Shown here: in pieces, positions 26-2,403 of the stretch | Layout: each line of letters begins with the position of its first letter | How positions within the stretch are numbered: the stretch's first letter is position 1 | UHGV virus genome: UHGV-0307437 | Source of the DNA: a virus | Reading direction: 5' to 3' (one strand) | DNA: 44,419 nucleotides | Translations under genes and position numbers: made by a program | The notes under the pieces: model-generated | What the model was told of the DNA's origin: nothing | The model's database searches: none | The model's input: the letters and a program-made list of their open reading frames with translations, nothing else

Positions 26-430
26 TTGTATAAAGACGGCTCTGGATTCTATTTTAAGATAATGCATAAGCTGATAAGAGTAGATGGAGTAATAAGAAAT
101 TTTCTCAATAGATTTAAGATGGGTAAACCTGCCAGAACAGTAGTGATGTGTCCTAAATGTAGAACACCATTAAAATATATATGGAGAGATAATGTGAATG
201 CTGTATATAACTATATGGAAGCTATTACTTATGCTGGTGTAGGAGATTATCATATTGAGAGAGAGTATAATATGGAAGATGAGGGTAATTTTGATTATGT
301 TTATTGTCCTAATTGTCAATATACTAATACTAATCCTAAGACTATTAAAAAGTTTAGGAAAGTTCCAGGAGAACAATTCGTTGATATGGACAATGTTGTA
401 GATTATTTTGAGTTTAAGCATAAGGAGTGA
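26..430 (+). CDS. Cys-rich Zn-ribbon protein (CPKC...CPNC). The frame is open back to the window start, so the true start is uncertain and may lie upstream of the window
   Basis: Listed ORF uses a TTG start. The same frame has no stop back to position 2. Two CxxC pairs. Confidence 0.4.
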   Translation: MYKDGSGFYFKIMHKLIRVDGVIRNFLNRFKMGKPARTVVMCPKCRTPLKYIWRDNVNAVYNYMEAITYAGVGDYHIEREYNMEDEGNFDYVYCPNCQYTNTNPKTIKKFRKVPGEQFVDMDNVVDYFEFKHKE

Positions 431-994: not shown

Positions 995-1114
995 ATGAGT
1001 AGATTAATAATTGAAGTATTAGGAGGAGTTATCCTATTTGCTGCTGGGTTTATGGTAGGAGCTATCAGAGAGAGAAAAGGAATGAATAAGGATATTGAGA
1101 AGAAGAGAGGATAA
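995..1114 (+). CDS. 39-aa small membrane peptide (MSRLIIEVLGGVILFAAGFMVGAIRERKG...)
   Basis: Strong RBS AAAGGAGG 7 nt upstream. Hydrophobic core. A terminator follows. Confidence 0.35.
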   Translation: MSRLIIEVLGGVILFAAGFMVGAIRERKGMNKDIEKKRG

Positions 1115-1129: not shown

Positions 1130-1158
1130 TTGACTTTTATTAATTTCTAAGGTATAAT
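1130..1158 (+). promoter_or_regulatory. Consensus sigma70-type promoter: TTGACT, 17-bp spacer, TATAAT
   Basis: Exact consensus hexamers with a 17-bp spacer. Member of a repeated promoter family (see 1673, 2655, 2841, 39585). Confidence 0.6.
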
Positions 1159-1165
1159 TTAGATA

Positions 1166-1436
1166 CAAAATAATAAAGTTAAGTTGACGCACATGCGTTG
1201 TTTGTCTACTCGTATAAGCAGAGTAGGAGATTACCTCTGGAGAGGGCAACTCTGGGAAAAGGTTTGGTTTAGGCTTATATTAAGTTATGGGCAACCGAAA
1301 TTTTCAAACAAAATGCTAATGGTAACTAAGACCATACCACGTATGTGGAGAAAGTTGGGGAGGACACTGGCAGAAATGCGGGGGTACTTCAAAGGTATTA
1401 GTTCGAGGACACCTTTTTTAAGTGTGTCCTTTTTCT
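1166..1436 (+). ncRNA. Candidate structured non-coding transcript, about 270 nt, about 44% GC
   Basis: Lies between a consensus promoter and a terminator hairpin (1406-1436). GC-rich relative to the roughly 30% background. Several local hairpins. The only ORF here (1184..1465) has an implausible W/R/C-rich composition and no RBS. Confidence 0.3.
1406..1436 (+). terminator. Terminator hairpin AGGACAC...GTGTCCT + T-run
   Basis: 7-bp stem, T-rich tail. Confidence 0.5.
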
Positions 1437-1672
1437 TTTACCTCTCTCTTAAGGACAGTGTTTAAGAGGGTAATGAAGTAAGTTGAGAGAACGATTCTCA
1501 AGCTCAAAAACTAGAGCTAAAGACACCTTTTAGTAAGAATTTTTTAATAATTATTCTTACTAGGGGGGTAAGTCTCAATCACTCAAACTCAGCTAAAAAA
1601 CTCAATCATATATACTCTAACTAGAGCTTTCTAAAAGTGGTTATTAACTAATGGTTGATAGCCATTTTTTAA

Positions 1673-1734: not shown

Positions 1735-2403
1735 ATGGAAGAAAAAAAACTTAATATTTATCAAAAACTATTAGAAGTTCAAAAAAGAGTAGTAGGACTT
1801 GGTAAAAATCAAAAAAGCTTCAATTATGATTATGTAACAGGAGCTAAGATACTGGATAATATTAAACCTATTATGAATGAGGTAGGATTGATATTAAAAC
1901 AAGAGATTATCAATCTAACTCACGAGAGAATAGATTATAAGTCAAAGAATAGTGAAAAATCAGAAATATTATATACAGCAGAGTTACTATTCACTTGGGT
2001 AGACGTGGAAACAGGAGAAAAAGACGAGAATAGATTTGCTGCTAGTGGTATGAACGACTGGGAGAAAGGTGTAGGAAGTATCTTAACATATGCAGAGAGA
2101 TATTTCTTACTTAAGTATTTCCATATCAAGACTGATGAAGATGATATAGACAATCCAAATAGAAAACCAGATGATAACACACCAGAGCTTAAACAACCAA
2201 AGAAAAAAGAAAAACCTATTGAGAGAAATGTAGAAGAACTAGATAGACAGGCTATGTTAAAAGAAATACCTGTCAAATTACAAAATAAACAAGCTGGATA
2301 TTATGAGAATGTATTGAAATTCTTTAAGTTACCAGAAGATACACCAATAGAAAAACTATCAGACAAGCATTTAAAAACTTTATATGATAACTTAAATAAG
2401 TAG
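1735..2403 (+). CDS. erf: ERF-family single-strand annealing (recombination) protein
   Basis: N-terminal IYQKLLEVQ..KN.KSFNYDYV....IKPIMNEVGL and GSILTYAERYFLLKYFHI...DEDD motifs match the ERF superfamily pattern. Confidence 0.7.
   Translation: MEEKKLNIYQKLLEVQKRVVGLGKNQKSFNYDYVTGAKILDNIKPIMNEVGLILKQEIINLTHERIDYKSKNSEKSEILYTAELLFTWVDVETGEKDENRFAASGMNDWEKGVGSILTYAERYFLLKYFHIKTDEDDIDNPNRKPDDNTPELKQPKKKEKPIERNVEELDRQAMLKEIPVKLQNKQAGYYENVLKFFKLPEDTPIEKLSDKHLKTLYDNLNK

Follow-up and report, generated by a model that had tools for sequence, protein, structure and literature searches.

What is encoded by a stretch of phage DNA that begins with a near-consensus promoter, ends with a terminator-like hairpin and holds no credible protein-coding gene? 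The question is raised by positions 1130-1672 of UHGV virus genome UHGV-0307437, whose whole stretch of 44,419 nt is called the window below. The window presents a phage-like genome of about 44 kb and 30.3% GC, with genes for large terminase, portal, Erf recombinase, Ant antirepressor and DnaB. The sequence in question follows the terminator of a small membrane-protein gene and precedes the promoter of a single-strand-annealing recombinase gene. We consider it, with good confidence, to be a 542-bp accessory cassette for a folded RNA that encodes no protein and has no match among known RNA families. This confidence concerns the existence of a genuine non-coding RNA gene only; the mechanism of counter-defence that is proposed further below is graded apart. 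A preliminary description of the region had also preferred a structured non-coding RNA to a protein gene. That view is supported by homologues in four related phage contigs (L025, L072, L073 and L081, among 84 fetched loci that carry L-numbers), in which promoter, terminators and hairpin architecture are conserved.

Architecture and predicted fold of the cassette

The cassette and its borders are composed of the following features, in coordinates of the window.

1098-1128, + strand: upstream terminator, which ends the gene of a small membrane protein of 39 amino acids (aa; 995-1114) and forms the left anchor of the insertion site
1122-1143, + strand: left copy of a 22-nt direct repeat, TTTTTT(T/A)ATTGACTTTTATTAA, composed of T-run and -35 box; bound of the cassette
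1130-1158, + strand: cassette promoter P1, TTGACT, 17-nt spacer, TATAAT
1165-1237, + strand: Left variable module, allele A, 73 nt, weakly structured
1238-1255, + strand: conserved island, 18 nt, TGGAGAGGGCAACTCT(G/A)G, which can form a mini-hairpin AGAG-GGCAA-CUCU; crossover point between Left and Right
1256-1305, + strand: Right variable module, allele A, 50 nt, with one predicted hairpin across the whole module
1306-1404, + strand: conserved scaffold, predicted four-way junction
1405-1439, + strand: strong intrinsic terminator T1, a GGACAC...GUGUCC stem followed by UUUUUCUUUU; predicted 3' end of an RNA of about 275 nt
1440-1633, + strand: structured tail with predicted hairpins at 1444-1470, about 1483-1501, 1501-1518 and 1526-1568, which would be reached only by read-through of T1
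1634-1671, + strand: terminator-like hairpin T2 of about 17 bp (A-U extensions counted) with a U-run behind it, which marks the cassette's right end
1665-1701, + strand: right repeat copy and resident promoter P2 (1673-1701, TTGACT-17-TATAAT with extended -10 TG), serving the Erf gene (1735-2403)

Promoter P1 agrees with the consensus at 11 of 12 positions and is the top-scoring site of the first 5 kb. The sigma70-type promoter of the preliminary description is thus present, although near-consensus and not perfect as was stated there. Its -35 and -10 hexamers are unchanged in all five cassette copies, a single spacer base differing in L081, and the promoter scan returned no other + strand promoter between 1158 and 1673. 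Promoter spacing places the inferred transcription start near A1165. The resulting transcript of about 275 nt (1165-1439) would have a GC content of 40.0% against the background of 30.3% (standard deviation 3.5 for windows of 275 nt); just 4 of 1766 such windows are as GC-rich. An enrichment to about 44% over some 270 nt had been claimed before. The enrichment itself is real, and the value holds for the core at 1184-1405 (43-44%) but not for the transcript as a whole.

The hairpin with T-run that had been proposed as terminator is found at 1405-1439. In L081 its stem carries a compensatory change of one A-U pair to G-C (alignment columns 106 and 120). The tail beyond it contains a perfect stem, as described, though of 10 bp instead of 8 (1531-1540 pairing with 1553-1562), and its 3' part is a C/A-rich stretch following the four hairpins. 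Both repeated motifs recognized there earlier are confirmed: AACTAGAGCT occurs twice, at positions 1509 and 1619, and CTCAA five times on the + strand within 1497-1605, compared to a + strand average of about one per 470 nt. The G-poverty reported for 1480-1640 is only mild (24 G versus 28 C in 161 nt). The second terminator-like hairpin, T2, was overlooked at that time; in L072, a G-to-A change turns one of its U-G pairs into U-A.

Folding was evaluated by z-scores of the energy against dinucleotide shuffles. Positions 1165-1440 have a z-score of -2.4 in the window and -3.3 in the L025 allele, and the tail reaches -5.0 on the + strand versus -2.5 on the - strand. The Left module contributes little to this (-1.0 for allele A, -0.3 for allele B, neither significant). 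Its two alleles have in common just the 5' leader and a mini-hairpin CGCACAUGCG, differently placed, which in Left-A is ACGCA-CAU-GCGU with the core at 1188-1197. Each of the three Right alleles, A (50 nt), B (46 nt) and C (28 nt), is predicted to form one module-spanning hairpin, with z-scores of -3.6, -6.2 and -4.6, respectively. The local stems CCTC-TGGA-GAGG and CCAC-GTAT-GTGG, pointed out before, are present.

The scaffold is predicted to fold in the same local manner in every allele. Stem P1 pairs 1312-1317 with 1394-1399. Stem P2 (1319-1323 with 1331-1335) consists of 5 bp closed by the 7-nt loop AACUAAG, stem P3 (1337-1340 with 1345-1348) is a 4-bp tetraloop hairpin, and stem P4 (1360-1390) is long and bulged, with a GAAA tetraloop at its tip. 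The loop of stem P2 is complementary to UUAGUU just before T1 (window 1324-1333 and 1394-1403), a candidate pseudoknot whose positions are invariant among the copies. Three substitutions preserve pairs: the compensatory one in T1 and two changes from G-U to A-U, one in T2 and one in the Right-A stem (G1296A in L072). The remaining substitutions fall in loops or bulges. The constant parts vary so little that covariation offers essentially no support for the scaffold. The retained promoter, terminators and hairpins, together with the strand bias in folding, point to selection on an RNA.

Coding potential and known classes of RNA and mobile elements

The open reading frame (ORF) at 1184-1465 would encode 93 aa, begins with TTG and, as had been stated, is preceded by no Shine-Dalgarno sequence. 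In neither L025 nor L072 is this frame intact, and L081, whose Right-C is shorter by 22 nt, has a different sequence in place of the N-terminal part. The sole ORF common to all copies is one of 50 aa from ATG 1313 (to 1465), also without Shine-Dalgarno sequence; it passes through the stem and U-run of T1. A conserved ORF with a synonymous signature had been named as the observation that would speak against an RNA gene; the opposite was found, with 4 non-synonymous changes and 1 synonymous change in the 50-aa frame. The 93-aa ORF has no match in Pfam or PHROG and no homologue among 5.8 billion protein clusters. Neither did a six-frame pseudo-protein, made of all open stretches of the conserved part, find a relative among these clusters, nor did back-translated ORF patterns reveal a related locus in three collections. 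We therefore reject a small-protein gene on the grounds of broken frames, missing start signals, the 4:1 ratio and the lack of homologues.

Comparison with known RNA families was equally negative. The whole window has no match in Rfam 15 at gathering thresholds. Relaxing the E-value up to 10 on 1050-1750 yielded eight chance-level matches of 13-18 bits, compared to gathering scores of 40-96; six are to eukaryotic miRNA or snoRNA models and the others to Listeria rli51 and PrrB/RsmZ. No CRISPR-DR, tracrRNA or HEARO model matched even at this level. A tRNA, tmRNA or tRNA-like RNA was rejected because ARAGORN finds nothing in the window and no Rfam tRNA or tmRNA model matches, while Rfam does detect the tRNA-like elements in the cassettes of L079 and L082 described below. 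An RNA antitoxin, one of the roles suggested in the preliminary description, is excluded as far as the tandem-repeat type is concerned: type III antitoxin RNAs and pseudo-ToxI are tandem arrays of repeats of about 34-36 nt, and Tandem Repeats Finder gave 0 rows on 1100-1720 at a minimum score of 30. A riboswitch or attenuator would have to precede a regulated ORF in one transcript. This does not fit, since the interval from T1 to T2 contains no ORF with a start signal and the gene beyond T2 is served by a separate promoter; nor does any Rfam riboswitch model match.

Several mobile or templated elements were rejected as well. A retron msr-msd would need a reverse transcriptase; the neighbours are the 39-aa membrane protein and Erf, and no reverse transcriptase domain was detected among the 30 window proteins scanned. 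This also speaks against the template of a diversity-generating retroelement, of which no variable-region copy exists elsewhere in the genome. No gene for an integrase-like or RNA-guided protein was found near the cassette or among the same 30 proteins. A miniature inverted-repeat or other nonautonomous transposon is not indicated either: the cassette has no terminal inverted repeats, there is no second copy in the window genome, and the 22-bp direct repeat is nothing other than the promoter junction.

Module alleles, distribution and the occupants of the slot

Direct searches for further copies failed. Neither 50,697 phage records nor 72,556 plasmids gave a BLAST match to the cassette, and exact 18-23-mers of island and scaffold gave nothing but chance matches, none extending past the seed, in IMG/VR, JGI metagenomes and GTDB genomes. 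The sole island match in IMG/VR lies inside a coding gene ('NGGEGNSG'), which we take to encode a putative GIY-YIG-type endonuclease, and fits chance expectation. In sum, INPHARED, PLSDB and IMG/VR contain no cassette copy, 18-mer probes of JGI metagenomes and GTDB representatives found none, and a literature search for island and scaffold strings, as well as for accessions of the samples, returned nothing. Because the DNA searches failed, the neighbouring proteins were taken as anchors. Exact matches to the 39-aa protein upstream, together with DUF3310 homologues, led to 18 related phage contigs with the same slot; the source of every cassette copy is a Logan assembly of a public sequencing run. 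An nhmmer search with scaffold and tail over the 84 loci recovered the five known copies and a T2 match in L079, and nothing else.

The cassette is present in 5 of 19 related genomes of about 44 kb (the window, L025, L072, L073 and L081) and precisely absent from ten others (L026-L034 and L036). These empty sites consist of the upstream terminator, then a single copy of T-run and TTGACTTTTATTAA, and the P2-type recombinase promoter directly after the terminator. The upstream terminator was found by terminator scan and sequence match at filled and empty sites alike, for example at L028:3105-3135. The two direct repeats of the filled site (1122-1143 and 1665-1686) were 95% identical with a spacing of 543 in a repeat search, in place of the one copy at empty sites. 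Presence and absence, together with the repeated junction, identify the cassette as an accessory, moron-like unit, which recombination at the repeated terminator-promoter junction can, judging from these sites, insert or remove. Morons are promoter-gene-terminator units located between core genes of phages, a concept that comes from lambdoid phages. The cassette shares with them its own promoter and terminator, an autonomous layout, presence or absence between the same two conserved core genes and a deviant base composition, but instead of a protein gene it carries an RNA whose internal modules are exchangeable.

Promoter-type copies of the form (T)TTGACTTTTATTAA(C) recur in the early region at window positions 1130, 1673, 2655 and 2841, each right after a terminator. 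Such repeated promoter-terminator junctions are module boundaries among the relatives and look like points of mosaic exchange by recombination. One of the intervals, 2655-2840, comprises a promoter (TTGACT-17-TAAAAT, 2655-2683), about 150 nt without ORF and a terminator (2811-2836), with the Ant promoter following at 2841. It is 94-97% conserved in many relatives, has its interior swapped in L027, L031 and L037, and shows a folding z-score of -1.8. It is a candidate for a second small RNA, one of the core genome rather than accessory.

Conservation along the cassette is strikingly uneven. Between phages, scaffold plus T1 (1306-1440) and tail (1441-1672) are 97-100% identical, with 96.6-98.7% between copies for the tail at 1440-1633, and the 18-nt island differs by at most one base (G-to-A) among all alleles. 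Promoter and 5' leader are 86-97% identical between copies. The upstream flanks of the cassette-bearing phages are just 68-75% identical, and their DUF3310 proteins 62-91% identical to that of the window. The Left and Right segments are either of the same allele (95-100%) or essentially unrelated (39-54%). Left-A and Left-B (the latter in L025, L072 and L073) share 49-53% identity, Left-A and its variant A' in L081 95%, and the Right alleles A, B and C 39-54% in pairs. The combinations of Left and Right are A with A in the window, B with B in L025, B with A in L072 and L073, and A' with C in L081. In the compared sequences, Left and Right are thus discrete alleles that reassort around the 18-nt island, although only four distinct cassette sequences are available. 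Neither module was found reused elsewhere in the related loci.

Which other genes use the same slot? In four relatives it is occupied by genes of the PF21825 (Sequestin) family, in one of them together with a PF11195 (Tad2-like) protein.

L001, 3635-3910: Sequestin gene, in the closest relative of the window (Erf 96% identical)
L079, 3196-3657: Sequestin domain within a longer protein of 153 aa
L080, 3287-3562: Sequestin gene
L084, 3304-3525 and 3537-3854: Sequestin and Tad2-like genes

The Sequestin family has been shown experimentally to sequester 3'cADPR and thereby to cancel type I Thoeris, and its members are often fused to Tad2 (bioRxiv 10.1101/2025.07.12.664507). Like the cassette, these genes are accessory and belong to the early region; in contrast to it, they code for proteins with a shown ligand, and their relation to the cassette RNA is positional only. 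In the slots of the five genomes with the cassette there is no Sequestin gene, although these numbers are small. In L025, an AntA/ANT antirepressor module follows, the cassette being located directly upstream of antA. A different promoter-driven cassette without ORF is present at this place in three relatives, among them again L079.

L079, 3690-4000: conserved leader and tRNA-like sequence
L082, 3055-3330: conserved leader and tRNA-like sequence
L083, 3015-3290: conserved leader and tRNA-like sequence

In these, a conserved leader of about 90 nt is followed by one or two tRNA-like elements. The element at L079:3808-3876 scores 51 bits against the Rfam tRNA model and has a 5-nt 'anticodon loop', while the one at L082:3261-3319 reaches 34.6 bits and lacks an anticodon arm. 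Upstream of it, L082 has a further tRNA-like element, followed by CCA. None of them is called by ARAGORN. Possible interpretations are mimics of tRNA without a decoding role, or decoys resembling Y RNA. A homologue of T2 closes the otherwise unrelated cassette of L079 (3962-3999; nhmmer and BLAST). Apart from slot, promoter and this terminator the likeness ends, the cassette RNA of the window having no tRNA-like fold by either ARAGORN or the Rfam tRNA model.

As for the host, the only strong relatives of terminase and portal occur in the Fusobacterium phages phiBB and FNU4 (25-30% identity, E 3e-31 and 5e-53), whereas DnaB and Erf searches were uninformative. A Fusobacterium-type host is likely because of these relatives, and the related genomes of about 44 kb are probably Fusobacterium-type siphoviruses.

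Three neighbouring genes deserve mention in their own right. The 39-aa protein (window 995-1114) combines a single hydrophobic helix with a basic tail (MSRLIIEVLGGVILFAAGFMVGAIRERKGMNKDIEKKRG), an architecture resembling a type I toxin or holin; at least 23 contigs contain it unchanged, and other relatives have analogues of 33-51 aa instead. For a zinc-ribbon protein at window 116-430, Pfam gives a match to the restriction-alleviation protein Lar that is weak and below threshold (E = 0.009), which makes it another possible anti-defence gene of the early region. The N-terminal 150 residues of Erf (window 1735-2403) are 69% identical to Erf of Flavobacterium phages, while the rest of the genome is Fusobacterium- or Firmicute-like, which suggests long-range exchange of the recombinase module.

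Possible functions of the RNA

What might such an RNA do? Our favoured, tentative explanation is that it serves as an early counter-defence or host-manipulating decoy or mimic that binds a host protein or ribonucleoprotein. We put its probability at roughly 0.4, a figure for the explanation as a whole with the counter-defence mechanism included. The cassette would be a moron-like RNA gene moving between phages by recombination at the repeated terminator-promoter junction, and it would be transcribed early by host RNA polymerase. The product would be a stable folded RNA built of the constant four-way-junction scaffold, the island mini-hairpin and two exchangeable specificity elements, the variable modules corresponding to different versions of the target in the host. 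We regard counter-defence or host manipulation through direct binding as the most likely function because the slot of relatives holds Sequestin, Tad2 and tRNA-like cassettes and because no module pairs with phage transcripts. Of the roles named in the preliminary description, it is the decoy that is favoured, and solely by the genomic context.

Several points weigh against this explanation. Transcription, processing and function are all deduced from sequence, and the argument for an anti-defence role is purely one of genomic position. The slot of L025 also holds an antirepressor module, so the site is an accessory hotspot that is not exclusively devoted to anti-defence. There are four distinct sequences with near-identical constant parts and essentially nil covariation in the scaffold, and the high conservation could come from very recent spread instead of selection. 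The sequence comparisons behind the explanation cover phage loci, and the assignment of the host goes through proteins of 25-30% identity to those of Fusobacterium phages.

An unlikely alternative, which we rate slightly above the others, is a regulatory small RNA of the phage itself, acting in trans or in cis by base pairing on antirepressor or recombinase genes or on the lysis-lysogeny decision. P22 Sar and P1/P7 C4 are antisense immunity RNAs of temperate phages, and heteroimmune phages differ in their short recognition segments. The cassette resembles them as a small RNA in the early or immunity region near an antirepressor gene: it lies near the Ant and recombinase genes. Moreover, the Left allele follows the type of recombinase in four independent genomes, Left-A occurring with Erf-type (the window, L081) and Left-B with Sak-type enzymes (L025, L072/L073). 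This correlation has a chance probability of about 1 in 3, no base-pairing explanation for it was found, and Right-A occurs with both types. Antisense RNA of the Sar/C4 type was rejected as a class, since the longest runs of complementarity to the 44-kb genome, 8-13 nt, are no better than those of shuffled controls, and no Rfam C4 model matches. With the 2-2.5 kb that follow downstream in each locus, the modules form predicted duplexes whose energies fall inside the range of shuffled modules or are worse. The regulatory RNA of the preliminary description, if understood as antisense to the phage's own genes, is disfavoured by these results. In addition, the Ant leader is the same in the window and L025 despite their differing alleles, and the cassette, being dispensable in most relatives, from which it is missing, stands outside any core regulatory circuit.

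A special form of mimicry, in which the RNA imitates a guide or CRISPR RNA and disables or redirects an RNA-guided nuclease of the host (Cas9, Cas12, IscB or TnpB), seems improbable to us. The Right hairpin and the scaffold would imitate a repeat or tracr scaffold and Left would present the unconstrained 'spacer' part. Published precedents are promoter-driven RNAs from intergenic regions of phages: Racr, which inhibits immunity (Camara-Wilpert et al. 2023, PMC10651486), and rAcrIIA1, an RNA anti-CRISPR in an intergenic non-coding region of 545 bp, close to the size of the cassette (Chen et al. 2026 preprint, bioRxiv 10.64898/2026.06.03.729762). Both lie beside anti-defence genes and act as protein-binding mimics, and the cassette is like them in that it would encode a small non-coding RNA from its own promoter at an intergenic, accessory locus that relatives use for anti-defence genes. 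Its layout fits too, with a weakly folded variable 5' part, a hairpin, a constant multi-hairpin 3' scaffold and a terminator. However, the RNA of about 275 nt exceeds their 30-110 nt, has two exchangeable modules and matches no CRISPR repeat or tracrRNA model. Left, of about 70 nt, is far above spacer length, and the Right hairpin, the would-be repeat duplex, is variable, while a mimic directed at one nuclease should hold it constant.

We hold it to be equally improbable that the cassette is selfish or neutral mobile DNA, with an RNA devoid of function and with hairpins and repeats that either assist recombination or hitch-hike as junk between the duplicated junctions. The polymorphism of presence and absence with 22-bp direct repeats would be expected then, and near-identity across divergent phages fits recent spread. 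On the other hand, there is one copy per genome, without terminal inverted repeats, and the mobility is accounted for by homologous exchange, since the boundaries fall on a functional promoter. Along with a full promoter and two terminators, each of the three unrelated Right alleles has kept a hairpin across the whole module, with pair-preserving substitutions, and the + strand folds better than the - strand.

More specific, and very improbable, is the notion that the constant scaffold is an RNA aptamer that captures a nucleotide of immune signalling, for example a cADPR isomer from Thoeris or a cyclic oligonucleotide of CBASS (cyclic-oligonucleotide-based antiphage signalling system) or type III CRISPR. 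The swappable hairpins would tune stability or specificity, and the RNA would be a counterpart of the Sequestin and Tad2 sponges. In a wider form of this idea, the phage group may possess a whole slot of RNA anti-defence cassettes, the anticodon-less tRNA-like RNAs included. A small protein, translated from the 93-aa TTG frame or the shared 50-aa ATG frame, is hardly credible given the features of these frames presented above, even with an ORF open across the conserved scaffold in all copies.

To our knowledge, nearly all phage counter-defence factors described so far are proteins. The few RNA examples are CRISPR-repeat mimics, pseudo-antitoxins and spare tRNAs. The cassette presents an orphan structured RNA that alternates, at a single hotspot, with experimentally validated sponges of immune signals, and its discrete module alleles are ready-made material for swaps of specificity. 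Even if the RNA should prove regulatory or selfish instead, the cassette would still be a clear case of an RNA moron and of repeated promoter junctions at which recombination takes place. If the RNA does act in anti-defence, it would add a new class to the counter-defence factors of phages, and hotspot-guided searches should then include cassettes without ORF, which are discarded by protein-based pipelines.

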